Virus record (IMG/VR): IMGVR_UViG_3300042868_003730
Coordinates: 64,001-128,000 of that record
Strand: one strand, 5' to 3'
Source: a virus
Length of the DNA stretch: 64,000 nt
Made by a program: the position numbers and the translations under genes. A model generated the notes under the pieces. The model was not told the DNA's origin. It ran no database searches and saw nothing but the letters and a program-made list of their open reading frames with translations. Below, piece after piece: positions 1-45,620 of the stretch (positions are counted from its first letter, which is position 1; each line of letters opens with the position of its first letter).

Positions 1-255
1 GACACAAACCGACTTGAACAAGATATTCTCAATTATTGCAAAGAACGCAATATGGAGAAGGTCGATGTTATCCGAGCTGATCTTATTCAGCAGCGATCGA
101 AACTTGACTTCTTTATGAGCAAGTTCATTGACAAGTATGGCTCTAAGTTGGATGAGAAGCGCAATGACTCATACAACCGATTCTACACTGACAAGAGCAA
201 TGAATATTCCGGTATTAATCGTCTACTTCGAGTAATTGATGCATACAGCAAATAA
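1..255 (+). CDS. hypothetical protein, possibly 5'-truncated by the window edge
   Basis: The frame of ORF 52..255 has no stop back to position 1. No recognisable motif. Confidence 0.5.
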   Translation, partial: DTNRLEQDILNYCKERNMEKVDVIRADLIQQRSKLDFFMSKFIDKYGSKLDEKRNDSYNRFYTDKSNEYSGINRLLRVIDAYSK

Positions 256-538
256 TTTTTCAATCTTTGATCAGGAAATGCTGTTGAATATTGATATCGA
301 TAGCGCAAGTAATTTCCTGTTCCGTAACTCCTCGGAGTTCAGTCAATTCGTGGAACTAACCTCGATTCGTGAGGGACGTAGTTGTACTAGTATTATTCTT
401 GCCTACTGTGAGGATAAGGATCTAGACCCCGAAGACATCTCTAAATTGATATCAAAGCCACTTCGTGAGAAGTTGATGATCGAGATGCAAGAGGATGGCT
501 TGTTACCACGGAGCACTGCTACTTTAGAATTTGAATGA
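236..538 (+). CDS. gp33: late promoter transcription co-activator (T4 gp33-like)
   Basis: SIILAYCEDKDLDPEDISKLISKPLREKL..E..E..LL is the gp33 core pattern; gene order is 33-59-32. Exact start uncertain. Confidence 0.85.
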   Translation: MMHTANNFSIFDQEMLLNIDIDSASNFLFRNSSEFSQFVELTSIREGRSCTSIILAYCEDKDLDPEDISKLISKPLREKLMIEMQEDGLLPRSTATLEFE

Positions 539-13357: not shown

Positions 13358-13744
13358 ATGGCCACAATAACATTCTCAGATATCGATGCTAGTTTTACAC
13401 CAAATCCCATAACAGGCGATTTGGCAGTAAGAACAGACGACCAGGCAATTAAATTCGCCATTCGTTCACTCATAATGACGAATTATTATGAGCGTCCATT
13501 TCATAGTAATATTGGATCCCCTGTCAGTTCTCTCTTGTTTAATAACATGGGTCCAAATTTCAATAGCATCCTTAGGCAAGGCATTACTGATACCATAAAC
13601 AACTTTGAACCAAGAGTTGATGTTTTGGAAGTTCAGATAGATGATTCACCAGATAATAATCGAGTGTATATCTCGATTATCTTTAAGATTAAGAACACAG
13701 AAAGACCAATTGAGGTCGGGCTAAATCTAACGAGAACACGATGA
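13358..13744 (+). CDS. gp25: baseplate wedge subunit (gp25)
   Basis: FSDID.SF..NPITGD, AI...I..L..TN.YERPF...IGS, I.NFEPRV. Confidence 0.95.
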   Translation: MATITFSDIDASFTPNPITGDLAVRTDDQAIKFAIRSLIMTNYYERPFHSNIGSPVSSLLFNNMGPNFNSILRQGITDTINNFEPRVDVLEVQIDDSPDNNRVYISIIFKIKNTERPIEVGLNLTRTR

Positions 13745-15531
13745 CAAGTAAAAACATTAGAACCGATTCTCTTGATTTCGATGAGATCAAACAGAATATC
13801 AAGAACTTCCTTCGTGGTCAGTCTAAGTTTACTGACTATGATTTCGAAGGTTCTGCTCTTAGTATTCTGATTGATGTTCTTGCGTACAACACTCATTACA
13901 ACTCATTGTACACGAACCTTGCGGTCAATGAGATGTTCTTGGATAGTGCAAACAAGTATTCTAGTGTTGTGTCATTGGCGAAGAGTCTTGGTTACAATGC
14001 CAAGTCTATTACTAGTGCCAGAGCAAAAATCAATCTAACCATCACTACTAATACGTTTAGCACAAATACTTTAGTTCTTCCCGCAGGAACAGTATTCCGT
14101 GGTAAAGTAGGTGATGTTGAGTATGACTTCGTCGTAGAGAGTGATGTCAGTTCATCGGGATTTCTTACTGCAGATAACATTAATGGTGTGTATAGGTTCT
14201 TTGATGTAAGTTTGGTTGAAGGTTATAGACTCACCAAACAATACGTCGCGACTGCAACTGGATTTGATTTTGCTATTCCAAATAGATTGGCTGATCTTTC
14301 ATCGCTTCAGGTTAGCGTTCAAGATAATGCATCTTCATCAATCTATACTGGATTTGGTTTTGCAGCTGACACATTATCAGTTCAGGGTGACACCCCTGTA
14401 TATTTTATCAAACAAAGAGATGATCTTTATTACGAGATATTCTTTGGTAATGATGTAATTGGTAAGGCAGTCAATCCTGGTAATGTCGTTCACCTTAGTT
14501 ATTTGGTTAGTTCTGGCTCAGCTGCAAATGGTGCCAATAATTTCGTATACTCCCGTGGATTGAATCTTCCATCTTTGACATCAACTGTCGTAGAGTTAGT
14601 TTCTGCTGCTTATGGTGGAGCAGAAGAAGAAGATATTGATTCAGTTAGATTCAATGCCCCTCGCGCGTATGCCTCGCAGAACAGAGCTGTGACGGCTGAA
14701 GATTATAAGAATATCCTTTATACCAATTACCCATCCATTGAAACAATTGCTACCTGGGGTGGTCAGGAGAATTACCCTCCTGTATACGGAAAAGTTTATA
14801 TCTCCGCAAAACCATACGGTGCCAGTTCATTTACTGCTGCAGAAAAAGAAAGTATCATAAACTTTATAAAGAGAACCAAGTCTGTTGTGTCAGTTACTCC
14901 TGTGTTTGTTGACCCAGAGTTCCTGAGAATTGAACTTACCACAACAGTAAACTTCAATAGAAATGCTGCTCGCCGAAGTGTTGGTGAGATCCAGAGTCTT
15001 GTTGCATCGTCTCTCGTACAGTACGGTGATTCACTTGGTAAATTTGGGTCCAATTTTAGATATTCTAAGGTCGGTGCTTTGATTGATGGCGCAGATGATT
15101 CTATTACGAGCAATGAGACATCGGTTAAAATTAGACATACAATAAGTCCGTTGTATAATAAGAATGCAAGATACACAGTCCCATTCGATAACCCTATCTT
15201 CGATAATCCACTTGGTGGGGCATTCTTCTCAACGAGATTCTATATTCCAACAGTAGAAGATCGTTGTTATCTGTCAGATGATGGTGCGGGCAATATCGAC
15301 CTTTATTCAGAAACAATTGAAGGAACTCCTTCTAGAATTAGAACAGTTGGTAAAATTGAATACGTATCTGGGTTAATTGATGTATATGAATTAACGATCA
15401 GTGGATTACATGATACATTGTTTGAGTTCGTGGTAATTCCAGCGAAGAATGATATCTTTCCAACTAGAAAGTATATCATCCAAATGCCAGAAGAACTGTT
15501 AAATATCAGCATGCAAGTCGATAATACCTAA
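13741..15531 (+). CDS. gp6: baseplate wedge subunit (gp6)
   Basis: LDFDEIKQNIKNFLRGQ..FTDYDFEGS.LS.LIDVLAYNTHY, NEMFLDSA, AP..Y..QNRAVTAEDY, PPVYGKVYIS. Confidence 0.95.
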   Translation: MTSKNIRTDSLDFDEIKQNIKNFLRGQSKFTDYDFEGSALSILIDVLAYNTHYNSLYTNLAVNEMFLDSANKYSSVVSLAKSLGYNAKSITSARAKINLTITTNTFSTNTLVLPAGTVFRGKVGDVEYDFVVESDVSSSGFLTADNINGVYRFFDVSLVEGYRLTKQYVATATGFDFAIPNRLADLSSLQVSVQDNASSSIYTGFGFAADTLSVQGDTPVYFIKQRDDLYYEIFFGNDVIGKAVNPGNVVHLSYLVSSGSAANGANNFVYSRGLNLPSLTSTVVELVSAAYGGAEEEDIDSVRFNAPRAYASQNRAVTAEDYKNILYTNYPSIETIATWGGQENYPPVYGKVYISAKPYGASSFTAAEKESIINFIKRTKSVVSVTPVFVDPEFLRIELTTTVNFNRNAARRSVGEIQSLVASSLVQYGDSLGKFGSNFRYSKVGALIDGADDSITSNETSVKIRHTISPLYNKNARYTVPFDNPIFDNPLGGAFFSTRFYIPTVEDRCYLSDDGAGNIDLYSETIEGTPSRIRTVGKIEYVSGLIDVYELTISGLHDTLFEFVVIPAKNDIFPTRKYIIQMPEELLNISMQVDNT

Positions 15532-24600: not shown

Positions 24601-27600
24601 GAGTAGAATGGAATAATTGGCAAACTACCGTAAAGGGAGTTTCCCAAACTCCAACGTCAACTAGTAGTACTGCAACTAGCACATCTCTAAAGGGATCACA
24701 GGCTATTCAGTCAACATCAACTACCGCTACTACTTCATTGACAACTACTGTCAATGAGACATCTACGCGTACTGGTATTGAAGTAGAAAGATCTGCGATC
24801 TCAACTGTTACTAGAGATCTTGGAAATAAAGTCGTAGATACTTCTATCGTTCCGTTTATTAGATCTAGAGTTATTGACTTTTCCGCGTCTAGACTAAAAC
24901 CATCAACTCAACTATTTGCCTCATTCGATAGCGTTGATGTTACTACTTATTGCACACAGGCTCCAGTAATTTATCTGACTACGGTTGCTAATGCAAAACG
25001 TGTTCGCAAAATTGGAGCATCTAATGCTGCTAATGTGATTCTGTTAAAGACAGACAGAGCATACATTAAGATGGATGATGGGCAAACATTATTCGCAGTT
25101 GGCGATGTTGTTGAATGGTTAGTAAACAATGCCTGGGTCACTGGTACGACTATTACTGATGTAGCTGCTCCAGTCGATGATTCATTGATTACTGATGAGA
25201 ATGGTGATCTGGCTGGATATTTCCTAATTCCTAATAATTCAGAAACTAAATTCCGAACTGGTGAGCGACCATTTAGATTAGCAGACACTCTCGGTAAACA
25301 ACCACTCACTGCAGCAGAAACAAAGTATGTTGCACAGGGATTGTCAATGTCTGTGCAAAGAGACATTGTAGCAACTAGAGTTGTTACTGTTGCTGTTAAT
25401 CCCGTTCAACAATCAAATACTTCAACTTCTTCATCAACATCAACATCTACTGAAGTCGCAACAGTTACTAAAGATGTAACTGTCCTCTGCGGAGAAACTG
25501 CGAATGGAGCAGGAAGAACTGGTAAATTTACTTATGATCTAGAGTTCGGAACTGACATTGGAGCATGTGGTATTAACTATGCCACTGGACCAATTCCAGA
25601 CTGCTATACTATTATCTGGAATGGAAAAACAATAACTAGTGGTTTCCGTAGTCAGGGAAACAAAACGGAATATAATAGAACTCTTAATTCATTAGGATAT
25701 CCTTCAGTAAATAGCGTTATTGATGCAAATAATCCTGCGTATGGACAATTACGATTCCAGAAAACATCTATCTACCCAACCAAGGCAAAACTAATTGTTG
25801 ATGCTCCTCTTTCTGGCACTGGTTGGACCTGGAAATCAATTTGTCCAGGTAAGACTAATAACCTAGTAGCAGAAACTACTGCTCGTCTAGATGCATTCAT
25901 TGATGTTCCTTCTACGACAATAACGTCATTTAGGTCAGTTGGTGGCTCTCCTGCAGTTCCTGCTGCTTCTTTCGGTCTATTTAACATTCCAGCAAGACCA
26001 GCAGTAGATCCAACTATCTCTACTACAGATACTGGAGTTCGATATAACTTCGCATTGAAGATCAACGGAAATCAGGGCGTTGCTGTTGGTACTCCAGTAA
26101 TAATCACATCACTGTCTAGGTCAGAAACTACTAATGGTCGTTTCACTTCGTTCGCAACTGGAACTCGATTCTTGGTAAATGGCGCACCAATGACATTCCC
26201 TTACACGGTCAATGTCGGTGTTCCTCTTACAATTACAGCGATTTATGACTTCACAAATGACTCAAAAACAAAGGGTCTTAATTTATCCGGAAGTCTGAAC
26301 AATCCTATTTCTAGGATCACAGTTAATGCTGAATTAGTAACAGCAATTGCTGGTTCTGTTTGCGCTACTACTGCAGCAGATTCAGTTACTCATACATCTT
26401 CTTATGAGCGTTGGGACCGTAGTACTTGCAAAAATGACCCACTAGCTCAGACATTCTATGTGTCTTCAGAAGAAAATCCAGATGGTATTTTCGTTGACAG
26501 TGTTGATTTGTTCTTCAAGTCAAAGGATGCATCAGGAACAGTACCAGCAGTAGTGCAGATTCGCCCAACAGTTAATGGCTATCCATCTTCAGATACTGTT
26601 CTGCCTTTCGCAAGTGGTTCTGTTATGTCAAAGGACATTGTTGTCTCAGCTGAGAATAGTTCGAGCAAAGCAGCAACCAGGTTTAATTTCCAGGCTCCGG
26701 TCTTCTTAGCACCAGATACTCAATATGCTTTGGTTGTTCTTGCCAACACTGACAAATTTGAAGTTTATACTTCAAGAATCGGTGAGTTCTTGTTGTCTAA
26801 TCCTTCTGTTCGATGCACGAAACAACCTCTGGCTGGATCATTGTTCTTGTCACAAGATGGAATGACTTGGTCAGCTGTGCAGACTGATGATCTGGTATTC
26901 AGAATGAGTAAGTGCGTGTTTGATACAAATGTCGAGAGACCAGTTGTTCTTAATGTAAGTATTCCTGCAGAAAAGAAAACCAGTCAAGATTTTAACTATG
27001 ATGTTCTGTTTCTTGACGGAGAAGTTCTTGATTTTGCTAATACGAATGTTAACTATTTTTATAAAACAGCAGAGCTATCTGGTAGTTCTGTAGTTTATAC
27101 AAAAGACTCTTCTTGGAATTCATATCAATTAGGAAGTAACGTAATTCTCCCAGCAAGAAAGACTCTTGATATTCAAGATCCAACTACTCTGCGCATTAAG
27201 TGCGATATGCGGACTAATAATAAAGATATTAGCCCTGTTATTGACTTGGATAGATTGTCTACAGTTCTTGTTCAGAATATCATCAATAATAATTCTAACA
27301 GTGAGACAGCAACAACTACAGCTACCATCTCTTCAGTTGCTGCGACTACTAATACAGTAACTATCACGGCTTCTGCTGCTCATGGATTATCTGTTGGCGA
27401 TACTGTTTACGTGTACGCCAATACTTCTACTGTAGTTAATGGATTCGTGACTGTTGCTTCTATTGGTACGACAACAGTAACGAATGACAATTTCACTTAT
27501 GTGAGATTTGATGGAGGAACAACGATTTCTAGCACAAACCAGGCAGGAACTGTAACTAGAAACCCACAGGCACTCTCAAGATATATTACGCGTAAAGTTA

Positions 27601-27944
27601 CTCTGAATTCAGATTTTTATTCAACTGATATTAAGGCATATTTCCTCGCTGATATTCCTGCTGAGTGTTCAGTTATTCCGTATTATAGAGTAGCTAGTTT
27701 GACTGACAATATTCTAGAAGATAATGACTGGATCCCGATGACTCTTGATACAGTTGGTTCTGCCAATTCTTCTGGCTTCGCTGAATATAAATACAAAGCA
27801 CCGTATGTTGTATCTTCGAATACAGTAGCTCTTTCTACTGGTGAGACATTTGGAACCTTCAGTGTTAAATTAGTTATGTTGTCAAGTAATACTGTTAAAG
27901 TTCCGAAAATCAAAGACCTACGAGTATTGGCTCTAGATGACTAA
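21672..27944 (+). CDS. large baseplate/tail structural protein (VrlC / DUF4815-like)
   Basis: YNRDPYFDDFD..KNF.KILFKPG..VQARELTQLQ, NYAAPGADR, LARRTYDESGDY, NRRYTMRDIG, FKNGILVDPF, DPLAQTF. Confidence 0.85.
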   Translation: MTTYNRDPYFDDFDKTKNFVKILFKPGVSVQARELTQLQTAIQEQIKSIGGFLFKNESLVTGGNSRTFSAIWIDVASTDLSDYVTKTFVGASSRAKAQVISYKNNVSSGVSRLYFVYKNGYRFQKSESLSEDVLSPSVAPVVTTNSDTNTGSAMAYTISESVFFVKDYFVVCSEQTIIISENATPSVKIGLTVTEDIVTYQDDATLLDPATGSYNYAAPGADRVAISLDLVTHALDPLADTDAEFMIENTEDNFIELARYKDGVLIKSLTSPTLGALEGVLARRTYDESGDYTVRAFKTKVTDNVKKDSSKLSLAIEPGKAYVKGYEFETTSTLFLDLEKARDTNFINNFYGEAAFGDYFIIEHPTGALIDYTANPEINLVNSSVAVIGTARVRYVSRHSANRLKLYVYNVKFTTSSISAVTTVKNGSWTANVDGAANANKLYRGKNLQYIVPFTRSPIKSVTDISYTSQVAVSNIATATTLSSPTSLSAGKTYSSSNPDDYIVVKSDGSVATGFTVTTSGGQTFILTGTFTNAATYSVYAKIAVSTPTVKSKVKTAATVTATNSNGNISLGVADVYRIVSIYASSTDGSLTLDITGRYKLNRGQKDTHYDYSTLVLTTGQQAANLTTYPRLVITLEYFVSAQTNGYFTIDSYNTTTTDTSLLVPYEKIPSFTGSNGAVVSLRDVIDFRSVRANVSGFPGSLGTPIPSSDNTSIVGNEFITPSSNITSDFEYYLPRVDKLIITKEKKFDLIQGNSSEIPQIPSDISDAMTIYTVEIPAYTFSAAEVKLNYIENRRYTMRDIGKIDKRVDRLEYYTSMSLLEKQASDEVIVNATGIDKFKNGILVDPFAGHGVGDVGSADYSCSIDVANRTLRPRFASDSFTFDVNLSETSGANYSRKDDLITLPYSTEFYVSNNQATNWQNLNPYAVFSWDGEIKLMPATDTWTDTTTRPDVVININGDKDAFTIMADDVANPASVGVEWNNWQTTVKGVSQTPTSTSSTATSTSLKGSQAIQSTSTTATTSLTTTVNETSTRTGIEVERSAISTVTRDLGNKVVDTSIVPFIRSRVIDFSASRLKPSTQLFASFDSVDVTTYCTQAPVIYLTTVANAKRVRKIGASNAANVILLKTDRAYIKMDDGQTLFAVGDVVEWLVNNAWVTGTTITDVAAPVDDSLITDENGDLAGYFLIPNNSETKFRTGERPFRLADTLGKQPLTAAETKYVAQGLSMSVQRDIVATRVVTVAVNPVQQSNTSTSSSTSTSTEVATVTKDVTVLCGETANGAGRTGKFTYDLEFGTDIGACGINYATGPIPDCYTIIWNGKTITSGFRSQGNKTEYNRTLNSLGYPSVNSVIDANNPAYGQLRFQKTSIYPTKAKLIVDAPLSGTGWTWKSICPGKTNNLVAETTARLDAFIDVPSTTITSFRSVGGSPAVPAASFGLFNIPARPAVDPTISTTDTGVRYNFALKINGNQGVAVGTPVIITSLSRSETTNGRFTSFATGTRFLVNGAPMTFPYTVNVGVPLTITAIYDFTNDSKTKGLNLSGSLNNPISRITVNAELVTAIAGSVCATTAADSVTHTSSYERWDRSTCKNDPLAQTFYVSSEENPDGIFVDSVDLFFKSKDASGTVPAVVQIRPTVNGYPSSDTVLPFASGSVMSKDIVVSAENSSSKAATRFNFQAPVFLAPDTQYALVVLANTDKFEVYTSRIGEFLLSNPSVRCTKQPLAGSLFLSQDGMTWSAVQTDDLVFRMSKCVFDTNVERPVVLNVSIPAEKKTSQDFNYDVLFLDGEVLDFANTNVNYFYKTAELSGSSVVYTKDSSWNSYQLGSNVILPARKTLDIQDPTTLRIKCDMRTNNKDISPVIDLDRLSTVLVQNIINNNSNSETATTTATISSVAATTNTVTITASAAHGLSVGDTVYVYANTSTVVNGFVTVASIGTTTVTNDNFTYVRFDGGTTISSTNQAGTVTRNPQALSRYITRKVTLNSDFYSTDIKAYFLADIPAECSVIPYYRVASLTDNILEDNDWIPMTLDTVGSANSSGFAEYKYKAPYVVSSNTVALSTGETFGTFSVKLVMLSSNTVKVPKIKDLRVLALDD

Positions 27945-31539: not shown

Positions 31540-34500
31540 ATGACATTCAAAATCAAAGATGGTCTTTCTCTTGGCGCGAACACAGTAATTGACGCCACTG
31601 GAAACATAACTGTCCCTGGAAAGACTACCCTAAGTAATACAACAGCTACTGCAGCTAGTCTAAATTTAGGAACAGGAACGGCGGATCCTTCCTCACCAGT
31701 TGCTGGTGATTTTTGGAATAATACTGGTGTTCTAAAGATTCGTCAGGCATCTGCCACTAAGACTATCGCATTCCTCGATAGCAATATTACTGGAACAGCA
31801 GCGAACGTATCTACTGGCACAGTAGCTATTGCTAATGGCGGAACAAATACCACAACCACACCAACCGCTGGTGCAGTTGCAGTGGGAAATGGAACTGCGT
31901 ATGCATTTACTGCAGTTGGAACTGCGGGACAAGTCTTAACATCAGCAGCAGGTTCTACACCAACTTGGACTAACTCGACTAGCGCAAACACATTTTCGGC
32001 TATTGTTCAGAGAGATGCCTCTGGTAATTTTTCAGCAGGAACCATTACTGCTGCTCTCACTGGTACGGCGACGAATGCAACTAATCTAGTAGTAACTGAT
32101 GATACAGCGACGAACGCAACATATTATCCTTCGTTTGCTCTTGGCACATCATCCAATCAAGCGCACAGAGTATCTAGTACAAAGTTAACATTTAATCCAA
32201 GTACTGGTATCTTAGCCTCTACTGGGTTTTCTGGATCTGGCGCATCTATTACTGCTATCAACACAGCTAATATCAGCACAGGAACTCTGGTAGTGGCAAG
32301 AGGTGGTACAGCTGGAAGTGCAACCCCTACAGCTGGCGCCATTGCTTTTGGAGACGGAACTGCGTATGCATTTACTGCAGTCGGAACTGCAGGACAAGTC
32401 TTAACATCAGCAGCAGGTTCTACACCAACTTGGACTTCTCAAGGCAGTTTATCAGTTGGTTCAGCTACCAATGCCACTAATTCTACTAATGCAAATAACG
32501 TCGCGATAACAGCAGACAGCGCGTCAGCTGGAACACATTATGTCCACTTTGGCGCAGTTACTACTGGAAACACCCCAGTAAAAATATCATCTAGTGGATT
32601 ATATTTCCAACCAAGTACAGCAACATTGACTGTTGGTGGAGCGTTGACTGTCGGCGGAAATTTAACAGTTAATGGAACTACAACAACAGTCAACTCAACA
32701 ACTACTACAGTTGACGATCCCATCTTTACTATTGGTGGAGATACGGCTCCGGCATCAGATGATAACAAAGATCGTGGTATTGAATTCCGTTGGCATAATG
32801 GTACTACTGCCAAAGTAGGTTTCTTTGGATACGATGACTCAACAAGTAAATTTACATTCGTCCCAGACGCAACAAATACATCAGAAGTATTCAGTGGAAC
32901 AAAGGGAACTATTGATGCTAACCTAGAATGGGCAGACGTTCTTAATAAACCAGACCCTGTTGTTACAGTCACGTTAACGGGTGACGTAACTGGTACAGCA
33001 AACACAACATTAACTGATCTTGCATCAGGTACAGTTACTGTTGCAACTACAATTGCTGCTGACTCTGTTGCCCTTGGCACAGATACTACTGGTAATTACG
33101 TGGCTACTGTTGCCGCTGGAACTCCTGGAGTAGAAACTACCAGTTCTGGATTAACAATTTCTTCTGTTGCTGGAGAAGGAACTGCTTCAACTATCGCTCA
33201 CGCAGATACATCAACGTTGACTGGTACACAAGGAAGTGCTGGAATTTCTTCAGTTACAATTGATGGTTTCGGTCACGTAACTGGAGTTACAACAGCTACT
33301 TACTTAACAGCTGAGGCAGATACACTTGCATCAGTAACTGGTCGTGGTGCAACTACCTCTACTGCTTCTTCTTTCACTGGTGGAATGACAGTTGGTGGAA
33401 CTGGTATCGTTTATAATGGATCTACCAGTGGTTCTACTACATTCAGAGCAAGTGCCACAGCTGGAACAACAACAATTACTCTTCCTGCTACAACTGGTAC
33501 TGTTGCTCTGGCGGGAGATACACATTTTATCGGAACCACTTCAGTAGCATTGAATAGAGCTAGTGCCAATTTAGCCTTGACTGGTATTTCTAGTGTTACA
33601 TTACCTGGCGCAACCAGTGGTACTGTTCAGATAATTCCAACTGCTATTGCAGGAACAGGAACAGTGTTGACTCTCCCTGCTACAACTGGAACAGTAGCTC
33701 TTAGTACTGGAAATCTATCGCAGTTTGCTGCTACTACATCATCCCAGTTAGCAGGTGTTATTTCTGATGAAACTGGTTCTGGTGCTCTTGTATTCGCCAC
33801 TAGTCCAACGTTAACAACTCCATCAATTGGAGTAGCTACTGGTACAAGTTTCAATAGTATCACTGGTTTGAGTTCCACGACTCCTGTCGTAGCTGGTACT
33901 GCTGCTATTGGAACAGGAACCACGGTAGCAAGAGCTGACCACGTGCACCCTGCACAGACTACTGTTTCTGGCACTGCTGGTGGTTTATCAGCAACGTTAA
34001 GTCCTGCTTCTGGTGGTACAGGTGTTGCAAACAATGCCGCAAGTACAATTACTATAAGTGGAAACTTTGGAACAACATTTACAGTATCAGCAGCAACAAG
34101 TGTTACATTACCAACAAGCGGTACTCTGGCAACTACCGGACAAACATTCTCTATTGGTACAACCAGTATTGCCATTAACCGCGCCAGTGCTGCGCAAAGT
34201 TTAACTGGTATTACTAGTATTGATGGATATGCTGCTGGTTTGGCTGGTGGAAATGCTACGACATTATTGGGCTCAATACCATATCAGAGCGCAGCCAATA
34301 CAACAACTTTATTAGCTCCGAACACTACTGTCACTAAGAGATTCCTACGTTCAACTGGTGATGGCACTAATGGTACTGCTCCTGTATGGGATACTATTGT
34401 TGCAGGTGATATTCCGACTCTCAATCAGAGTACAACAGGCTCAGCTGCTACATTAACGACTGCCAGAACTATCAATGGTGTTTCGTTTAATGGCTCAGCA

Positions 34501-35253
34501 GATATTACTGTAACTGCTGCGGCTGGTACATTAACAGGCGCTACATTGGCTTCTGGTGTAACAGCATCTAGTTTAACTAGCGTTGGAACATTAGCATCAT
34601 TGGCTGTGACTGGTACTGTGACTGGTACTAGTTTCAACAGCATTACAGGTCTTAGTTCTACTACTCCTGTCGTGGCTGGAACTGCTGCTATTGGAGTAGG
34701 AACCACGGCAGCAAGAGCAGATCACGTTCACCCAGCACAGACTACAGTTAGTGGTAACGCAGGATCAGCTACAGTACTCGCGACTGCTCGCGCTATCAAT
34801 GGAGTTTCGTTCGATGGTTCAGCTGCCATTACGGTGACAGCTGCTGCTGGTACATTAACAGGCGCTACATTGGCTTCTGGTGTAACAGCATCTAGTTTAA
34901 CCAGTGTTGGCACGTTAGCAAGTCTTGGTGTCGGTACTGCCAATGGAGTAGCTGGTACTATTGTTGCGTCAGGAAACATTACTGCTTTTTCAGATATTCG
35001 TCTCAAGAAAGATCTTGTCCAGATTCCAAATGCTCTAGATAAAGTTCAGCAATTGACTGGGTACACGTATACACGTATTGATAGTGGAATACAAGAAACT
35101 GGTCTGGTTGCGCAAGACGTACAGAAAATATTACCAGAAGCAATTGTTGAGGGTGAATATCTATCAGTTGCGTATGGAAATTTAGTTGGATTGCTGGTTG
35201 AGGCGATTAAAGAACTTAGAGCAGAAGTAGCTGCTCTAAAGGAAAATAAATAA
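31540..35253 (+). CDS. tail fibre protein with C-terminal intramolecular chaperone (peptidase S74)
   Basis: C-terminal ITAFSDIRLKKD...I.NALDKV..LTGYTY...TGLVAQDVQKILPEA....YLSVAYGNLVGLLVEAIKEL; DDNKDRGIEFRW..G.AKVGFFGYD fibre module; internal repeats. Confidence 0.88.
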   Translation: MTFKIKDGLSLGANTVIDATGNITVPGKTTLSNTTATAASLNLGTGTADPSSPVAGDFWNNTGVLKIRQASATKTIAFLDSNITGTAANVSTGTVAIANGGTNTTTTPTAGAVAVGNGTAYAFTAVGTAGQVLTSAAGSTPTWTNSTSANTFSAIVQRDASGNFSAGTITAALTGTATNATNLVVTDDTATNATYYPSFALGTSSNQAHRVSSTKLTFNPSTGILASTGFSGSGASITAINTANISTGTLVVARGGTAGSATPTAGAIAFGDGTAYAFTAVGTAGQVLTSAAGSTPTWTSQGSLSVGSATNATNSTNANNVAITADSASAGTHYVHFGAVTTGNTPVKISSSGLYFQPSTATLTVGGALTVGGNLTVNGTTTTVNSTTTTVDDPIFTIGGDTAPASDDNKDRGIEFRWHNGTTAKVGFFGYDDSTSKFTFVPDATNTSEVFSGTKGTIDANLEWADVLNKPDPVVTVTLTGDVTGTANTTLTDLASGTVTVATTIAADSVALGTDTTGNYVATVAAGTPGVETTSSGLTISSVAGEGTASTIAHADTSTLTGTQGSAGISSVTIDGFGHVTGVTTATYLTAEADTLASVTGRGATTSTASSFTGGMTVGGTGIVYNGSTSGSTTFRASATAGTTTITLPATTGTVALAGDTHFIGTTSVALNRASANLALTGISSVTLPGATSGTVQIIPTAIAGTGTVLTLPATTGTVALSTGNLSQFAATTSSQLAGVISDETGSGALVFATSPTLTTPSIGVATGTSFNSITGLSSTTPVVAGTAAIGTGTTVARADHVHPAQTTVSGTAGGLSATLSPASGGTGVANNAASTITISGNFGTTFTVSAATSVTLPTSGTLATTGQTFSIGTTSIAINRASAAQSLTGITSIDGYAAGLAGGNATTLLGSIPYQSAANTTTLLAPNTTVTKRFLRSTGDGTNGTAPVWDTIVAGDIPTLNQSTTGSAATLTTARTINGVSFNGSADITVTAAAGTLTGATLASGVTASSLTSVGTLASLAVTGTVTGTSFNSITGLSSTTPVVAGTAAIGVGTTAARADHVHPAQTTVSGNAGSATVLATARAINGVSFDGSAAITVTAAAGTLTGATLASGVTASSLTSVGTLASLGVGTANGVAGTIVASGNITAFSDIRLKKDLVQIPNALDKVQQLTGYTYTRIDSGIQETGLVAQDVQKILPEAIVEGEYLSVAYGNLVGLLVEAIKELRAEVAALKENK

Positions 35254-38269: not shown

Positions 38270-38710
38270 ATGGCAGCAATGTCAAACTATCTAGAAAACA
38301 AACTTGTGGATCACATCCTCAGAGCAACTGCGTTCACCGCACCAGGTACAGTGTATATTGCTCTGTATACAGCAGCCCCATCTGATGCAGGTGGTGGTAC
38401 TGAGATTACTATCGGTACGAATAACTATTCAAGAGCATCATTAGTTTCTTCGCAATCTGCTTGGAACAATACACAGGCGTCAGGAACTGCAGTTGCTTCT
38501 ACTGGTACCACTGGAATTACTGCTAATACATCAGCTATTACTTTCGCGACTCCTTCTGGTTCTTGGGGAACTGTAACTCACTTTGGTATCCTAGATGCTG
38601 CTAGTGCAGGAAATCTATTATTCCACGGAGCATTGACTGTGTCGCAAACAGTTAACACAGGAAACACCGTGTCATTCGCTGGTGGTGCACTACAAATTAC
38701 TTTCGCTTAA
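38270..38710 (+). CDS. small beta-sandwich virion protein (MSNYLENK.../'Gp80-like' family)
   Basis: MSNYLENKL.DH.LR..A.TAP.TVY.ALYTAAP.DAGGGTE...Y.R...AITF.T....WGTVTHFGI.DAAS.GNLLFHG.L. Confidence 0.75.
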   Translation: MAAMSNYLENKLVDHILRATAFTAPGTVYIALYTAAPSDAGGGTEITIGTNNYSRASLVSSQSAWNNTQASGTAVASTGTTGITANTSAITFATPSGSWGTVTHFGILDAASAGNLLFHGALTVSQTVNTGNTVSFAGGALQITFA

Positions 38711-38729
38711 TAGCATAGTAATTTTGATT

Positions 38730-38757
38730 AGGGCTGCTTAGGCAGCTCTTTTCATTT
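38730..38757 (+). terminator. intrinsic terminator
   Basis: AGGGCTGC-TTAG-GCAGCTCT stem followed by TTTCATTT. Confidence 0.8.
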
Positions 38758-40005: not shown

Positions 40006-40263
40006 ATGATCAATTTAAGAATTATTTATCCACAACAAAATGGTATTGTTACCATTCTTACACCAGCATTGAATTCTGACTTAACAATTGAAGAACTGGC
40101 TCGCAAAGATGTTCCGGCGGGAATCCCTTATAAAATCATTAATGTAGAAGATATCCCAACAGATCGAACATTTCGTAATGCCTGGGAAGCTGATTTCTCA
40201 TCTCCAGATGGTTATGGTATTGGGCATGCTGCCTGGTTTGCAGAAAGAGAAGGTAATGTATGA
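40006..40263 (+). CDS. putative fibre assembly chaperone, N-part
   Basis: IIY....G.V..L.P.....IEE.A.KDVP.G..YKI....DIPTDRTFRNAW motif, common after such fibre genes. Confidence 0.6.
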   Translation: MINLRIIYPQQNGIVTILTPALNSDLTIEELARKDVPAGIPYKIINVEDIPTDRTFRNAWEADFSSPDGYGIGHAAWFAEREGNV

Positions 40264-40505
40264 TTGTAATTAACATGGATAAAGCGAAAGATATTCGGCG
40301 CAAACAATTTCGAAAAGAGCGTCAACCATTACTCGATGCTCTCGATGTTCAATTCATGCGTGCAGTTGAAACTGGTGATGTTGCATTACAACAAAGTATA
40401 GTGCAAAAGAAACAACTTCTTAGAGATGCTCCTGCAAATCCAGAGATTGAATCTGCACAGACAGTTGATGATCTGAAAGCAATTACATTACCGACCGTGT
40501 TATAA
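40260..40505 (+). CDS. putative fibre assembly chaperone, C-part
   Basis: I.MDKAK.I.....R..R.PLL..LDV.FMRA.E.......IV..KQ.LRDAP. Confidence 0.6.
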   Translation: MIVINMDKAKDIRRKQFRKERQPLLDALDVQFMRAVETGDVALQQSIVQKKQLLRDAPANPEIESAQTVDDLKAITLPTVL

Positions 40506-40520
40506 TATAAAGAAAATTAA

Positions 40521-43298
40521 ATGTTAAGTTTTAACGCAATTTCATCAAATGCAATATCTGCTATAGGCAGAGTATTTGATGTTGCGTTAAATGAAAATGC
40601 CGTCACTGCGTCATCTTTAGAAACTTCTGGTGTAGTAACGGCTAGGTCAATATCAGAAACAAGAGCTACATCTTCAGCAGAAACTGCTGGTGTTGTTGCC
40701 GCAAGATCAATAGCAGAAACAAGAGCTACATCTTCTACTGAAACTTCTGGTGTTGTTGCCGCAAGATCAATAGCAGAAACAAGAGCTACATCTTCGGCAG
40801 AAACTTCTGGCGTAATAACGGCTAGGTCAATATCAGAAACAAGAGCTACTGCATCAACAGAAACTGTTTTACTGACTGCTGGCGCAACCAGAGCTGACAC
40901 TAACTCCACTACGTCAACAGAAACTTCTGGCGTAATAACGGCTAGGTCAATATCAGAAACAAGAGCTACATCTTCTACTGAAACCACCTTACTGACTGCT
41001 GGCGCAACAAGAGCTGACACTAACTCTACTACGTCAACAGAAACTTCTGGCGTAATAACGGCTAGGTCAATATCAGAAACAAGAGCTACATCTTCAGCAG
41101 AAACTGCTGGTGTTGTTACTTCTGCCTCAGTATCAGAATCTAACTCTACCGCTTCGTCAGAAACCACCTTACTGACTGCTGGCGCAACAAGAGCTGACAC
41201 TAACTCTACTACGTCAACAGAAACTTCTGGCGTAATAACGGCTAGGTCAATATCTGAGTCAAACTCATCTGCATCAACAGAAACTACCTTACTGACTGCT
41301 GGCGGAACAGTATCAGAAACTCGTTCTACTGCTTCCACAGAAACCACTACATTAACGGCTGGTGGAACAGTATCCGAAACAAGAGCTACTGCGTCAACAG
41401 AAACTGCTGGTGTCGTAACTTCTGCTACATTATCCGAATCAAGAGCTACTGCATCAACAGAAACTGCCGCATTAACGGCTGGTGCCAGCATAGCAGAATC
41501 AAGAGCTACTGCTTCGTCAGAAACTGCTGGTGTTGTTACTTCTGCATCAGTATCCGAAACAAGAGCTACTGCTTCCACAGAAACCACTACATTAACAGCT
41601 GGTGGTTCAGTAACAGAAACTCGTTCTACTGCTTCCACAGAAACCACTACATTAACGGCTGGTGGAACAGTATCCGAAACAAGAGCTACTGCTTCCACAG
41701 AAACCACTACATTAACGGCTGGTGGAACAGTATCCGAAACAAGAGCTACATCTTCTACTGAAACCACTACATTAACAGCTGGTGGTTCAGTAACAGAAAC
41801 AAGAGCTACATCTTCTACTGAAACCACTACATTAGTAGCTGGTGGAACTTTATCTGATACTAACTCTACTGCTTCCACAGAAACCACTACATTAACAGCT
41901 GGTGGAACTTTATCTGATACTAACTCTACTGCTTCGTCAGAAACCACTACATTAACAGCTGGTGGTTCAGTAACAGAAACTCGTTCTACTGCTTCCACAG
42001 AAACCTCTGGTGTAATTACAACTACATCGAGAGCAGAAACAACTGCCAGTTCGTCATCAGAAAATAGAACATTAGTAGCTGGTGCAACTAGATCTGATAC
42101 TAACTCTACTGCAACTACAGAAGCCTCTGGTGTAATTACAACTACATCAAGAGCAGAAACAGTAGCGGCGACATCGTCAGAAAACACTTTAATAATAGAT
42201 TTTGAACCAATAGCAGAAACAACTGCTACTGCATCAACAGAAACTGTTTTACTGACTGCTGGCGCAACCAGAGCTGACACTAACTCCACTTCGTCAACAG
42301 AAGTTTCTGTTGCGTCTTTAGTTGCTTCTGTAACTGACTCAACTAGTACTTCTGAGTCATCCGCTGCGTTTGTTAGTAATTTCCAGGCTATCATCAATTG
42401 CGCAGCAACGGTAACCGCGCTGTTAGATTTAGATGGAAACACAGAAGGTTCTCCTGCCGGAAATGCTGCTCCTGGATTCACTCCACTATCTAGCGTCGTT
42501 CTTGCTCAGCACATTGAATCTGCCCCAGCCGCGACCTATACAATAACAGCTGACTTTGATCCATTATTAGAGACTGAGATTACATCGGTGTTCTTCAATG
42601 ATAATCCAGCAAATGTTCTTTCGTATTCTATCATTGGACCAGATGTGTTTATTACTGCAAATACACCAGCAGAGGTGTACGCACAGGCATCTACGTTTAT
42701 GGTAAACAGAAAAGTTGTTCCACAGTTTAATGAATTCTTTAATTATAATGTTAGATTCAATACTACAGTCAAGAGAGATAGCGCAGGAAACAATTTCTAT
42801 TCAAATAAATTCTACTCCGAGCAAAATGTAATCTGTTTCCTACAGGATGATGGCACTGGACTAATTGATCTTTATGAAGAGATTACTCCTGGAACTACGA
42901 AGAAACTAAAGACAATTGGTAAAATAGACTATACCACTGGGTTCGTAGAGGTTCGCGGATTAATGATTACATCTCTTTACGATCTTGAGTTGTTCTTCTT
43001 CGTAGAATCCCTCGACGCGATCATCCCTACGAAGGATTACTTCACTGCACAGAATAATCTCTTAGTGGACAGTAAGACCATAACTTTCCCTACTGGAGAA
43101 CAGGTTGAGATTAGCCAGTATGAGAAACAAACAGATATCGTTGATCTGGAGATTTATGTAACAGCCAGATCTTATGCATTGGGCAGTCCATTGACTACAG
43201 TTGAAACAAGAACAGCAACATATGTTCTTAGAATTGTTCCGGATTATAATATCGGTAAGAATGCCATCAAACAACTGGTCTTAGAACAAGCAGCATAA
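40521..43298 (+). CDS. 20-aa tandem-repeat virion scaffold protein with a gp6-like C-terminal domain
   Basis: N-terminal MLSFNAISSNAISA, about 29 Ser/Thr/Ala-rich 20-aa repeats, then a region aligning by eye to the gp6 C-terminus. Confidence 0.75.
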   Translation: MLSFNAISSNAISAIGRVFDVALNENAVTASSLETSGVVTARSISETRATSSAETAGVVAARSIAETRATSSTETSGVVAARSIAETRATSSAETSGVITARSISETRATASTETVLLTAGATRADTNSTTSTETSGVITARSISETRATSSTETTLLTAGATRADTNSTTSTETSGVITARSISETRATSSAETAGVVTSASVSESNSTASSETTLLTAGATRADTNSTTSTETSGVITARSISESNSSASTETTLLTAGGTVSETRSTASTETTTLTAGGTVSETRATASTETAGVVTSATLSESRATASTETAALTAGASIAESRATASSETAGVVTSASVSETRATASTETTTLTAGGSVTETRSTASTETTTLTAGGTVSETRATASTETTTLTAGGTVSETRATSSTETTTLTAGGSVTETRATSSTETTTLVAGGTLSDTNSTASTETTTLTAGGTLSDTNSTASSETTTLTAGGSVTETRSTASTETSGVITTTSRAETTASSSSENRTLVAGATRSDTNSTATTEASGVITTTSRAETVAATSSENTLIIDFEPIAETTATASTETVLLTAGATRADTNSTSSTEVSVASLVASVTDSTSTSESSAAFVSNFQAIINCAATVTALLDLDGNTEGSPAGNAAPGFTPLSSVVLAQHIESAPAATYTITADFDPLLETEITSVFFNDNPANVLSYSIIGPDVFITANTPAEVYAQASTFMVNRKVVPQFNEFFNYNVRFNTTVKRDSAGNNFYSNKFYSEQNVICFLQDDGTGLIDLYEEITPGTTKKLKTIGKIDYTTGFVEVRGLMITSLYDLELFFFVESLDAIIPTKDYFTAQNNLLVDSKTITFPTGEQVEISQYEKQTDIVDLEIYVTARSYALGSPLTTVETRTATYVLRIVPDYNIGKNAIKQLVLEQAA
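40621..42360 (+). repeat. tandem 60-bp coding repeat array, about 29 units built from shuffled half-units
   Basis: Consecutive 60-nt lines stay in register, e.g. AAACTTCTGGCGTAATAACGGCTAGGTCAATATCAGAAACAAGAGCTACATCTTC. Confidence 0.95.
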
Positions 43299-43331: not shown

Positions 43332-44078
43332 ATGGCAGTAACTAATCGCGAAGGTCTAAAGAATTACGCACTAAGGGCACTTGGTGCTCCACTAATCACA
43401 ATTGATATTGCTGATGAACAGGCAGAAGATCGGATTGATGAAGCACTGGCATTCTTTCGCGAATACTACTTTGATGGTATCGAGAAAGTTTACTACAAGC
43501 ATGAAGTAACTGAACAAAACGTAACGAATCAATATATCGCGCTTCCGGATACAATCTGGAGTGTTAACCGTATTTTCCCATACCCAACTAGCAGTGGCTC
43601 TAGTTCTGTTAATATCTTTGACCTGCAATATCAGTTGAGAATGAATGACCTGAAAGATTTGACCAGCACAAGTCTAATCTATTACCAACAGGCTATGAGT
43701 CACATTGCTCTAATTGATAACCTGCTTAATGTACAGAAGCAGTTTAGATTTAATAAACTAAATGGCAAACTATATATTGATCAGAACTGGGGTATCGCTG
43801 GATTGACAGCTGGTCAATACCTTCTGTTTGATGTGTATACTGCCTTAGACCCAAGTGCTAGTCCTAAACTTTGGGATGATCGTTTATTCAAAGAATATAA
43901 CATTGCTCTGTTTAAGAAACAATGGGGCACCAATGTCAAGAAGTATCAGGGTATTCAATTACCTGGTGGGGTGACTATTGATGGCCAGTCACTGTACGAA
44001 GAAGGCAAGGCTGAGCAGGCTGACATTGAAGATAAGATTATGAGTCAGTTGTCGCCACTAGAATTCTTTATGGGCTAA
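43332..44078 (+). CDS. gp13: neck protein (gp13)
   Basis: LK.YALRALGAP.I.I.I..EQ.EDRIDEAL..F.EY.FDG, K.QWG.N..KY.G.QLPGGVT.DG. Confidence 0.95.
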   Translation: MAVTNREGLKNYALRALGAPLITIDIADEQAEDRIDEALAFFREYYFDGIEKVYYKHEVTEQNVTNQYIALPDTIWSVNRIFPYPTSSGSSSVNIFDLQYQLRMNDLKDLTSTSLIYYQQAMSHIALIDNLLNVQKQFRFNKLNGKLYIDQNWGIAGLTAGQYLLFDVYTALDPSASPKLWDDRLFKEYNIALFKKQWGTNVKKYQGIQLPGGVTIDGQSLYEEGKAEQADIEDKIMSQLSPLEFFMG

Positions 44079-44090
44079 ACCTCATAGTCA

Positions 44091-44133
44091 CAGTTGAATT
44101 ATACCCCTTAAATCCAACTCATAAAATAAACTT
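44091..44133 (-). promoter_or_regulatory. promoter-like motif copy 1, antisense to gp13 and the upstream structural genes
   Basis: Minus strand reads AAGTTTATTTTA-N16-GGTATAATTCAACTG; both boxes and the spacing are identical to 61809-61851. Confidence 0.65.
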
Positions 44134-44784
44134 ATGACTTTACGTCTGCATAACTCCGTATATGGGAATGAGAATCTGTTGATCGAATCTATGATCACGG
44201 AAGCCATCAATATGCATGGCGTGGATTTTATGTACATCCCACGAAGTTTCGTCGGTAAAGAAGATCTGTATGGTGAAGATAGGCTTAGTCGTTTTAATAA
44301 TGCGTATCCTATCGTTATGTATATGGAGAACAGTGATGGTGGCTTCCAAGGACAGGGAGCATTCGCCTCGAAGTTTGGTTTGATGATGGAACAGTCTGCC
44401 ACTCTAACTGTGGCAAGAAGAACTTGGGTTCAGGCAGTTGGTCGCTATGGTGAAACGATTCTGCCCCAAAGACCAGCTGAAGGTGATTTACTATACTTTC
44501 CGATGACAGGTGGATTGTTTGAGATTATGTTTGTTCAGCACCAAGATGCATTCTATCAGTTAGGTCAGTTGTATACTTACAAACTGACAGTAGAACTGTT
44601 CCGATACAGCAGCGAAATTATGGAAACTGGTGTTACTGATATCGATGCGTTTATGGAAAATAAGAGTACTGACGTAACTCTTAATGAACCAGAGAAACCA
44701 GATTCCTTCGGTGATAATAGTCTGTTACGTCAAAAGGCAGATGCTTTCGTGTTTGACGTCAATAATCCATTCGGGGAACTTTGA
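44134..44784 (+). CDS. gp14: neck protein (gp14)
   Basis: E..LIES...E.I.MHG.D..Y.PR, EDRLS.F..AY.I.MY, SKFGL, RP.EGDLLYFP, NPFGE. Confidence 0.95.
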   Translation: MTLRLHNSVYGNENLLIESMITEAINMHGVDFMYIPRSFVGKEDLYGEDRLSRFNNAYPIVMYMENSDGGFQGQGAFASKFGLMMEQSATLTVARRTWVQAVGRYGETILPQRPAEGDLLYFPMTGGLFEIMFVQHQDAFYQLGQLYTYKLTVELFRYSSEIMETGVTDIDAFMENKSTDVTLNEPEKPDSFGDNSLLRQKADAFVFDVNNPFGEL

Positions 44785-45620
44785 TGTTTTCGACTCCATA
44801 CTATCATGAACTCATCAAAAAGACCACTATTGGATTTGGTGCTCTTTTCAGTCAGATTAAAGTAATCCGTAGGAATCCTGCTTCTGGTGCTCAGGCGCAG
44901 GTAATCTCTGTACCTATTGCCTTTGGTCCAAAGGAAAAGATTCTTACAAGACTGGATCAAGATCCATCCTTAACTGGTCATACTTATATCACTCTTCCGA
45001 GAATGGCATTTGAGATTACAGGTTATAACTATGACACCAGTAGAATGGTCAATAGGAATAACAAAATCCAATGTTATAAAGACCAAACTCTATCGGCGAT
45101 ATATTCTCCTGTTCCGTATAACATTGAATTCTCATTGTATGTTCTAACTAAGGGAACAGAGGATGGTCTGGCTATTATTGAGCAGATCCTACCATTGTTT
45201 ACTCCTGAGTATTCATTTACAGTAAATGCTATTCCTGAGATGAATATCTCACAGGATATTCCAGTTGTGTTAAATGGTATTTCTGTGTCAGATGATTATG
45301 AAGGTGACTTTGCTACTAGGCGTCTTGTTACACACACACTTAATTTCACTGCAAAAATAAATCTCTTTGGTGATCTCAAGACTTCTGGTGTTATTACGAG
45401 GGTTGATGCTGATATTAAGAAATTCGAGAATTATACTGCGACGATGGATGATGAAGGGAACATTGTTGTTGATGTATGGAATATGACGTCAAGAGAATCA
45501 ATGCAAAATTCATTGGCAGCATCCACATCAACTTCTGCAACTACTTCTGGCGCAGCAACAAAAGCAGATTACACTCCATTGGCAGCAAACATCACTGTCT
45601 CGGCAACTGCTACTGCTTAA
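44781..45620 (+). CDS. gp15: tail sheath stabiliser / tail terminator (gp15) with a C-terminal extension
   Basis: YHE.IKK...GFG.LF, VPIAFGPKEK.L.RL, TLPRMAFEI, PVPYNI.F.L, QILP.F.P, DDYEGDF..RR. Confidence 0.93.
   Translation: MMFSTPYYHELIKKTTIGFGALFSQIKVIRRNPASGAQAQVISVPIAFGPKEKILTRLDQDPSLTGHTYITLPRMAFEITGYNYDTSRMVNRNNKIQCYKDQTLSAIYSPVPYNIEFSLYVLTKGTEDGLAIIEQILPLFTPEYSFTVNAIPEMNISQDIPVVLNGISVSDDYEGDFATRRLVTHTLNFTAKINLFGDLKTSGVITRVDADIKKFENYTATMDDEGNIVVDVWNMTSRESMQNSLAASTSTSATTSGAATKADYTPLAANITVSATATA

Follow-up and report, generated by a model that had tools for sequence, protein, structure and literature searches.

Phage tail genes are mosaics, and one gene in the DNA analysed here raises the question of why part of gp6, a wedge protein of the baseplate, should occur in a long fibre-like protein. 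The window (64,000 nucleotides, positions 64,001 to 128,000 of IMG/VR record IMGVR_UViG_3300042868_003730) encodes this protein of 925 aa together with the phage's own gp6. An earlier note, made by eye, had claimed that the C-terminus of gp6 is duplicated in the 925-aa protein and had proposed that the copy anchors the protein to the virion or dimerises it. The features discussed below are listed in Table 1.

Table 1. Features of the 925-aa gene, the gp6 gene and the neck genes in the window
Feature	Position	Strand	Residues	Evidence
gp6 baseplate wedge protein, 596 aa, source family of the insert	13741..15531	+		PF21379, phrog_219, T4 gp6 chains
gp6 distal C-terminal beta-sandwich, counterpart of the insert (T4 gp6 ~482-650)	15106..15501	+	456-587	hhalign
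Gene of the type-A fibre-like structural protein, 925 aa	40521..43298	+		ORF and translation
Conserved N-terminal peptide, about 14-20 aa, M-L-x-F-N-A/P-I/L-S-S-x-A/P-I-S	40521..40580	+		by-eye comparison
About 29 in-register 20-aa (60-nt) tandem repeats, presumed fibre shaft	40620..42320	+		TRF, autocorrelation
First half of C-terminal Ig/cadherin-like beta-sandwich	42450..42677	+	~644-719	model, type-B alignment
gp6-derived beta-sandwich inserted in the Ig-like domain	42678..43067	+	720-849	BLASTP, hhalign, structure match
Return linker, modelled poorly; Ig/cadherin-like domain, second half	43068..43244	+	850-908	model
C-terminal amphipathic helix	43245..43295	+	909-925	AlphaFold model, helix at model residues 291-305
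gp13 and gp14 neck genes, directly downstream	43332..44784	+		phrog_211, phrog_460, phrog_679

Homology of the insert to gp6

The ORF at 13741-15531 encodes gp6. It matched PF21379 (Gp6-like_1st) with E 5.4e-22, phrog_219 with E 4e-158 over residues 7-585 and T4 gp6 chains with E 7e-39. It is collinear with T4 gp6 over its full length and lies between gp25 and gp7-like genes, the adjoining ORFs matching gp25-type and wedge-subunit families. An AlphaFold model of its residues 401-596 (pLDDT 95.6) superposes on T4 gp6 420-660 (3h2t_B; Z 16.2, rmsd 2.8 Å, 186 residues aligned).

The similarity between this gp6 and the insert is far beyond chance. BLASTP aligned residues 734-840 of the 925-aa protein with gp6 470-578 (41/111 identical, 37%; E 3e-18), and profile-profile comparison of both families with hhalign gave 99.3% probability and E 2.7e-20 over 130 columns. 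The resemblance to the gp6 C-terminus seen by eye was thus borne out by both alignments that the earlier note had proposed as checks. Every one of its motif pairs falls inside the BLASTP alignment, and its coordinates (42700-43075 against about 15130-15500) agree with those from hhalign (42678-43067 against 15106-15501). The gp6 core motifs DDG-x-G and VG-x-I-D-Y-x-x-G are kept in the insert. When the complete genome (147.9 kb) was searched in six frames with the C-terminal 286 aa, only the protein's own gene and gp6 (E 1.5e-20) were found, and in an exhaustive search of 1.84 billion representatives the domain was confined to the 925-aa family and to gp6 or gp6 fragments.

The AlphaFold model of the C-terminal module had as its best viral match in BFVD the gp6 of Synechococcus phage S-WAM2 (E 3.7e-6, rmsd 2.2 Å over 113 columns). 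The matches that Foldseek returned from PDB for the whole module were all weak, multi-Ig and of very poor rmsd, none reaching E<=0.001. T4 gp6 was not among the matches listed in this search or in the VIA wide search, where the Ig-like half of the module filled the matches listed; the structural link to gp6 therefore comes from BFVD and from the separate model of gp6. Overall, sequence, profile and structure comparisons agree that the 925-aa protein carries the distal C-terminal beta-sandwich of a T4-like gp6. Similarity was restricted to residues 720-849 in both BLASTP and hhalign, and a Pfam scan (E<=1) found neither the N-terminal helical core-bundle domain (PF21379) nor the Baseplate_J region in the protein.

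Layout of the 925-aa protein and its family

The 925-aa protein is a long, repeat-rich, fibre-like member of an uncharacterised family of structural proteins found in marine T4-like myoviruses. This family is rare, and none of its members comes from a cultured phage: distant blastn and tblastn searches of 50,697 cultured phage records with the gene and the C-terminal 286 aa gave no match. Scans of the protein against Pfam (E<=1) and PHROG (E<=0.01) identified no family, a PDB sequence search with the C-terminal 286 aa gave no match at E<=10, and the repeat region used as a query against ESM Atlas retrieved only unnamed viral clusters with scores <=0.85. Family members with the gp6-derived insert, including that of this phage, are referred to below as type A and those without it as type B.

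From N- to C-terminus, the protein has a short peptide that is conserved, a shaft built of repeats of about 20 residues and a conserved head. By eye, the peptide is common to the full-length type-A proteins with an intact N-terminus, despite their differing repeat regions; type B has a different N-terminus. Period-60 arrays were detected by TRF at 40619-42161, and autocorrelation also gave the 20-residue register. The repeats are rich in Thr (28%), Ser (18%) and Ala (15%). Periods of about 20-21 aa were also found in the relatives, and their repeat sequences could not be aligned with those of the 925-aa protein in most loci and were weakly similar in a few. The shaft turns over very fast in both sequence and repeat number. 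Over the last ~300 aa, homologues are 47-88% identical to the 925-aa protein.

The head is predicted to be an Ig/cadherin-like beta-sandwich followed by the amphipathic helix, which is kept in both types. Its first half opens with the motif LLD-x-DGNT-x-GSPGG and is shared with the type-B proteins, as is the stretch of residues 850-908. In the AlphaFold model of the C-terminal module pLDDT was 80-92 at model residues 32-100, 82-94 in the insert and below 50 at 214-252, followed by a confident beta-hairpin at 255-287. The best matches of the Ig-like domain were cadherin EC and bacterial adhesin Ig-like domains, with Z 7.5-7.8 (rmsd 2.8 Å over 98 residues for the top match), best Z values of 7-8 being typical of models that have no clear match.

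Position of the insert within the Ig-like domain

Comparison of the two types located the gp6 copy inside this domain. Type-B proteins P0017-P0019 and P0024 match residues ~624-726 and ~834-920 of the 925-aa protein and do not have the intervening stretch (BLAST gap ~727-833). The two BLAST segments, 107 residues apart in the 925-aa protein, adjoin each other in P0018 (residues 246 and 239). In VIA, Ig/cadherin-like chains aligned about 98 residues spread over model positions 32..289 as single-domain matches. The copy of the gp6 distal beta-sandwich therefore interrupts a loop of an Ig/cadherin-like domain that was already present at the C-terminus. The earlier note had described the domain as grafted onto the repeat protein. 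The gene is indeed a chimera with a gp6-derived domain, but the domain was not added at the end: it splits an Ig-like domain that is contiguous in type B. The same fusion was found in the type-A relatives. A six-frame search of this genome for a type-B paralogue found none.

Gene neighbourhood

The 925-aa gene shares its strand with tail-fibre-like genes and is placed between these and gp13/gp14/gp15, directly upstream of the latter. The same order is conserved in the three type-A relatives mapped (L003, L004 and L005), where the gene also directly precedes gp13. This position supports the view that the gene belongs to the virion structural module; as the family has no cultured relative, association with the virion is deduced from gene position. 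Types A and B differ in gene neighbourhood. Promoter and terminator scans around the gene detected nothing above background. A hairpin is present after the upstream 146-aa gene.

History of the capture

In the tree the type-A inserts formed one clade (support 100/99, stem length 1.21), which was nested within a gp6 sub-clade (support 98/95). Members of this sub-clade are the gp6 of the window, of relative G001 and of a type-B phage; cyanophage, HTVC008M and Melnitz gp6 are left out. The type-A clade is pure, since rows L003_p10001 and L004_p10001 are type-A proteins with the same sequences as P0004 and P0009. A single type-A clade on a long stem inside the gp6 of this lineage points to one capture followed by divergence under constraint. 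The insert was very probably captured once, in an ancestor, with gp6 of this phage lineage as the donor. The copy diverged quickly after capture and has since been held under constraint, changing about as fast as the remainder of the head. In identity to relatives the insert (44-90%) follows the flanking head (42-93%) and gp6 (50-56%), whereas the repeats could not be aligned in most of them. The length of the stem hints that the captured domain took on a different function. Taken jointly, the anatomy of the chimera and this history of its capture are very probably correct.

A recent origin by intragenomic duplication or gene conversion was considered and rejected. It could be proposed, as could chance or low complexity, because the rest of the protein is a low-complexity repeat and the phage's own gp6 is the best gp6 match by E-value. 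However, the E-values given above were obtained in a non-repetitive region, and the predicted structure matches at rmsd 2.2 Å. Identity to gp6 is only 37%, and the inserts of different phages group together, away from their own gp6. The sequences compared include two pairs of gp6 and insert that come from one genome each. We regard all explanations of this kind as extremely improbable, and the copy is not a recent duplicate; by the tree its capture is old, single and ancestral.

Comparison with known systems

In T4 gp6 (PDB 3H2T, 5IV5) the distal sandwich homologous to the insert, with the same core motifs, ends the wedge subunit, whereas here it is embedded in the Ig-like domain of a fibre. 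The 925-aa protein has no counterpart of T4 gp6 residues 340-489, just as it lacks the helical core-bundle and the Baseplate_J region. T4 fibritin (wac) is likewise encoded directly upstream of gp13-gp14-gp15 and has the same plan of a short conserved N-terminus, a long repetitive shaft and a small conserved C-terminal domain. It differs in that no sequence or family match connects it with the 925-aa protein (0 Pfam, 0 PHROG), in its coiled-coil shaft, compared with Thr/Ser/Ala-rich repeats of 20 aa that look beta-type, and in its foldon, compared with an Ig-like sandwich bearing a gp6 insert. A precedent for the duplication of one structural module across the baseplate and a fibre of a single phage is the 'flower motif' shared by T4 gp10, gp11 and gp12 (PMC3004832), although the fold and the proteins are different and the T4 module is found at the attachment interface, not nested in another domain. 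The domain that hosts the insert finds its best fold matches among Ig-like and cadherin-like domains, a kind also present on phage structural proteins, with Z within the range of unrelated beta-sandwiches; it matches no Ig or cadherin family of Pfam and bears a whole extra domain in one loop.

This locus provides a clean, datable case of a core baseplate domain nested inside another domain of a fibre, with the sister group lacking the insert as a natural control.

Possible role of the insert

The earlier note based its proposal on the contacts between gp6 subunits in the T4 baseplate ring. For the copied sub-domain this basis is not established. The C-terminal part of T4 gp6 (334-660) crystallises as an inter-wedge dimer, and gp7 and gp8 form the platform for gp6 in the wedge (PMC3004832). 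The XM1 paper assigns inter-wedge dimerisation to domain III of XM1 gp16, which it equates with T4 gp6 340-489 (PMC10457771). The copied piece corresponds to T4 gp6 ~482-650, beyond that region, so the ring-contact premise does not transfer directly. The T4 review and the XM1 paper document no contact for the distal sub-domain (PMC3004832, PMC10457771).

The reading that we favour, tentatively, is that the insert docks the fibre head on the baseplate. The fibre would be part of the virion, and the insert would have kept from the wedge a surface for docking between proteins. With it the head would bind the baseplate periphery, at either gp6's own beta-sandwich or a partner of that sandwich, for which the gp7-like (15534-17273) or gp8-like (17996-21670) proteins are candidates. 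Docking might fix this end of the fibre, or it might stow the fibre's free end. Against docking, type-B relatives lack the insert, which consequently cannot be the ancestral anchor of the family and is not needed by the family for assembly. A fixed-distance tether is hard to reconcile with proteins that range from 340 to 925 aa in length, and the functional change suggested by the long stem also counts against docking. If docking is true, it would show how accessory fibres can acquire a site of attachment to the baseplate, namely by duplicating part of it. It would also open a way into an unannotated family of uncultured marine T4-like phages whose shaft changes very fast.

Fibres are usually attached by the N-terminus and carry a C-terminal head. 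T4 fibritin and gp12 have this polarity (PMC3004832). Types A and B share the head and differ in N-terminus and gene position, which points to the head as the distal end. In that case the N-terminal peptide would anchor the fibre at the neck or baseplate and the insert would be an additional ligand-binding or adhesion surface on a free head, with a host glycan or other particles as ligand and no contact with the baseplate. In favour of this, the Ig/cadherin-like fold and its LLD-x-DGNT motif are reminiscent of adhesion domains, the matches of the gp6 sandwich include weak galectin-like or jelly-roll ones (Z ~4), and the long stem after capture fits a new function. However, fold matches at Z 4-8 are within the chance range, and the head, unlike typical receptor-binding tips, shows much stronger conservation than the shaft, with a rate of evolution close to that of gp6. 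We consider such a knob somewhat unlikely; if it is all there is, the locus extends the catalogue of domain shuffling in phages modestly.

C-terminal domains commonly nucleate the oligomerisation of fibres, and the insert could pair fibre heads, cross-linking neighbouring fibres or setting the oligomer register. The crystal dimer of the T4 gp6 C-terminal part would agree with this, but the region that the XM1 paper links to dimerisation was not copied and type-B proteins presumably fold without the insert, which makes self-association quite unlikely. Domain shuffling is common enough in phage tail genes for the insert to be a tolerated passenger or spacer with no specific partner, kept only because the host domain would misfold if it were removed. 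This is very unlikely, given that the core gp6 motifs are retained and that the insert has stayed as similar among type-A proteins as its flanks, while the shaft has lost almost all similarity.

A bolder form of docking appears unlikely to us. In it, the fibre would attach to or be stowed on the baseplate by mimicry of a wedge subunit, the insert occupying a site at the wedge periphery that the gp6 distal domain normally contacts. This mimicry and the repeat-bearing N-terminal arm of the gp7-like protein would together make up a new means, not known before, by which T4-like baseplates carry hypervariable accessory fibres. In this phage the gp7-like wedge protein does have an N-terminal arm with a repeat of ~20 aa, of the same kind as in the shafts of the relatives. 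Compared with the shaft repeats the arm scored 33.5 bits, the highest score after shuffling being 25.8, which is a weak additional hint in favour of docking.

Structural module of the phage

The virus record is 147.9 kb long with direct terminal repeats, and the window covers its bases 64001-128000. Judged from its genes, the structural module is of the T4-like myovirus type. PHROG matches identified baseplate tail-tube-cap, baseplate-wedge-subunit and tail-protein families, a gp5-type baseplate hub/tail lysozyme, a PAAR protein, gp6, gp7-like and gp8-like wedge proteins, and several very large fibre-like proteins followed by the neck genes gp13 and gp14. A further wedge subunit is read as gp25-type. 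The ORFs downstream of gp14 are taken to be gp15, terminase, sheath, tube and portal because they are 67-96% identical to genes of relatives with those Pfam annotations. The phage's gp6 is ~37% identical to gp6 of cyanomyoviruses, Pelagibacter phage HTVC008M and Methylophilales phage Melnitz, which makes the phage a distant, uncultured relative of Kyanoviridae-type marine phages.

A gp6 domain inserted in the head of a fibre-like protein

The layout of P0001, a repeat-rich fibre-like protein, and of gp6 is given in the table. The P0001 repeats consist largely of Thr (28%), Ser (18%) and Ala (15%). Antisense to them lies a minus-strand ORF of 654 aa (window 40517-42481), most likely an artefact of the repeat codon composition, which leaves this frame stop-free.

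Features of P0001 and gp6
Feature	Protein residues	Window	Remark
P0001, 925 aa		40521-43298	ORF
N-terminal peptide, ~14-20 aa	start of P0001		kept, by eye, in relatives with intact N-terminus
Shaft, ~29 perfectly in-register 20-aa repeats	P0001 ~34-600	40619-42161 and onward	60-nt period
Conserved head	P0001 620-925		
Insert	P0001 720-849	42678-43067	profile-profile comparison
gp6 (P0002), 596 aa		13741-15531	ORF
gp6 counterpart of insert	gp6 456-587	15106-15501	profile-profile comparison

An earlier note had paired, by eye, motifs of P0001 with the gp6 C-terminus. All of these pairs are present in the BLASTP alignment of P0001 734-840 with gp6 470-578 (37% identity, E 3e-18). The similarity holds in profile-profile comparison of the two families (probability 99.3%, E 2.7e-20, 130 columns) and in predicted structure: an AlphaFold model of P0001 620-925 has pLDDT 82-94 across the gp6-like stretch, and its top match among predicted viral structures was a cyanophage gp6 (E 3.7e-6, rmsd 2.2 A, 113 columns), the next two also being gp6 proteins. 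When the last 286 aa of P0001 were searched against all six frames of the complete genome, the gene itself and gp6 were the only matches.

Whereas a graft onto the repeat protein had been proposed, the gp6 piece turns out to be inserted within the head. An exhaustive representative search returned 36 proteins; outside the family, all matches to the gp6-like stretch were gp6 or contig-end fragments collinear with it. Type-B relatives (P0017-P0019 and P0024), whose head domain is uninterrupted, match P0001 at ~624-726 and ~834-920, with no match to the stretch between. These flanking segments, 107 residues apart in P0001, abut in P0018 (residues 246 and 239). When single Ig/cadherin-like domains (~100 residues) are aligned with the P0001 model, the ~98 matched residues are spread over positions 32 to 289 (Z up to 7.8). 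This fits an arrangement in which residues 651-719 and 874-908 would together build a single beta-sandwich and the gp6 piece would occupy one of its loops; the Ig/cadherin-like assignment of the modelled fold is only moderately supported, Z values of 7-8 being common for unrelated sandwiches. P0001 was rejected as a gp6 family member, because it has neither the N-terminal core-bundle part nor the Baseplate_J part.

For gp6 itself, residues 401-596 were modelled (pLDDT 95.6), and the model superposes on T4 gp6 420-660 (3h2t_B; Z 16.2, rmsd 2.8 A over 186 residues). In sequence alignments, residue 464 of the phage's gp6 pairs with residue 490 of a T4-like gp6, and residue 500 with T4 519. From these reference points, interpolation places the copied segment at T4 gp6 ~482-650, which is the distal beta-sandwich. 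In T4, wedges dimerise within the gp6 ring through the C-terminal part of gp6 (334-660; PMC3004832), and inter-wedge dimerisation in XM1 occurs via gp16 domain III, stated to be homologous to T4 gp6 340-489 (PMC10457771). The copied piece lies just past that dimerising region, so the earlier premise that it makes gp6 ring contacts is not established for this sub-domain.

Origin of the insert and distribution of the family

In a maximum-likelihood phylogeny covering 44 copies of this domain (131 columns), the inserts of type A, the insert-bearing members, all group together as a single clade (support 100/99) whose stem is long (1.21 substitutions per site). This clade is nested inside a gp6 sub-clade (98/95) holding gp6 of the window, of a type-B phage and of G001, a relative which also carries a type-A gene; cyanophage, HTVC008M and Melnitz gp6 lie outside it. 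The placement indicates that the insert was captured once from gp6 of this phage lineage. With ~130 columns and unsettled bootstrap, the deeper branching order is approximate. Insert identity between phages is 44-90% and tracks the flanking head and gp6; the insert changed fast at first and was then conserved.

The same fusion was found in metagenomic relatives (P0003-P0016; six IMG/VR loci), which have the head in common at 42-93% identity (whole-head 47-88%). Their repeat regions are unalignable in most cases and weakly similar in a few, the ~20-21-aa period persisting, and total lengths across the family range from 340 to 925 aa. From gp13 through portal the same phages are 64-96% identical. 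The family was not found in a search of cultured phage records, nor a paper describing it in a literature search.

The fibre gene lies directly upstream of gp13-gp14-gp15 in all three relatives whose gene maps were read. In T4 this position belongs to wac (fibritin); the P0001 gene occupies it too, with a similar three-part plan, and P0001 was rejected as a fibritin on sequence. The closest precedent for a module common to baseplate subunits and fibres is the T4 gp10/gp11/gp12 motif (PMC3004832). P0001 can be described as a mosaic fibre-like protein in which a domain taken from the baseplate is nested.

Possible function of the insert

Tentatively, and at somewhat less than even likelihood, the insert would dock the fibre on the wedge periphery of the baseplate. 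In its favour, the copied domain came from a wedge protein of this lineage, and the head, unlike the fast-changing shaft, evolves as structural parts do; in the T4 wedge, gp7 and gp8 are described as a platform for gp6 (PMC3004832). A weak hint comes from the gp7-like protein, whose ~100-aa N-terminal arm has ~20-aa repeats like the relatives' shafts: its best match is P0006, residues 106-181 (35% over 76 aa, 33.5 bits, composition-corrected), the maximum over 50 shuffles being 25.8 bits. However, type-B proteins manage without the insert, protein lengths differ two- to three-fold, and the length of the stem branch points to the domain having taken on a new role once captured. Phage fibres, moreover, normally attach by the N-terminus, which differs between types A and B; type-B genes neighbour a Gp80-like gene, not gp13.

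It is possible, if rather doubtful, that the head is a distal binding knob without baseplate contact. That the insert serves as a head-to-head pairing module, akin to the dimerising role once suggested, appears unlikely, and a mere passenger domain a little more so.

Additional observations

In the gp7-like wedge ORF (15534-17273) the N-terminal ~105 aa (15534-15850) are Ala/Ser/Val/Leu-rich with a duplicated ~20-aa unit; by eye, this arm is only ~25 aa in G001 and absent in L007, a type-B phage contig. The Ser/Thr/Ala-rich C-terminal tail of gp15 (45495-45620) has one unit weakly like the relatives' shaft repeats, with a best E of 0.007 in a 17-protein database, unconvincing alone.

Two small ORFs of 85 and 81 aa (40006-40505) separate a 401-aa tail-fibre-like gene from the P0001 gene. 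The 81-aa product matches phrog_20196 and, below threshold, the phage tail assembly chaperone family PF16778 (E 0.0018); relative L003 has an 80-aa ORF at its position. The stretch 38270-38749, upstream of the fibre genes, holds the gene of a 146-aa protein that matches phrog_240, followed by a clean terminator-like hairpin at 38730-38749. Relatives have a syntenic 146-aa gene with the annotation PF23140 Gp80-like, and in type-B phages the type-B fibre gene comes directly after it.

A 528-aa protein of L007 (15136-16722) carries a Pfam mtd_2nd annotation with no mark of a weak or faint match. Mtd, the major tropism determinant, is the classic target of diversity-generating retroelements (DGR), and the annotation hints at a possible DGR-type variable protein in that phage.

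The 807-aa gp5-type hub (10637-13060) has the expected lysozyme region at ~135-317. Towards its C-terminus it again resembles lysis proteins, with phrog_894 endolysin matching at 655-782 and a peptidase matching weakly at 704-749, which suggests a putative extra lytic domain after the needle region. A 2090-aa DUF4815 protein (21672-27944) and a 1237-aa protein (31540-35253) with a Peptidase_S74 intramolecular chaperone domain at its end (E 6e-13) indicate that P0001 is one of several large fibre- or spike-like proteins carried by the phage.
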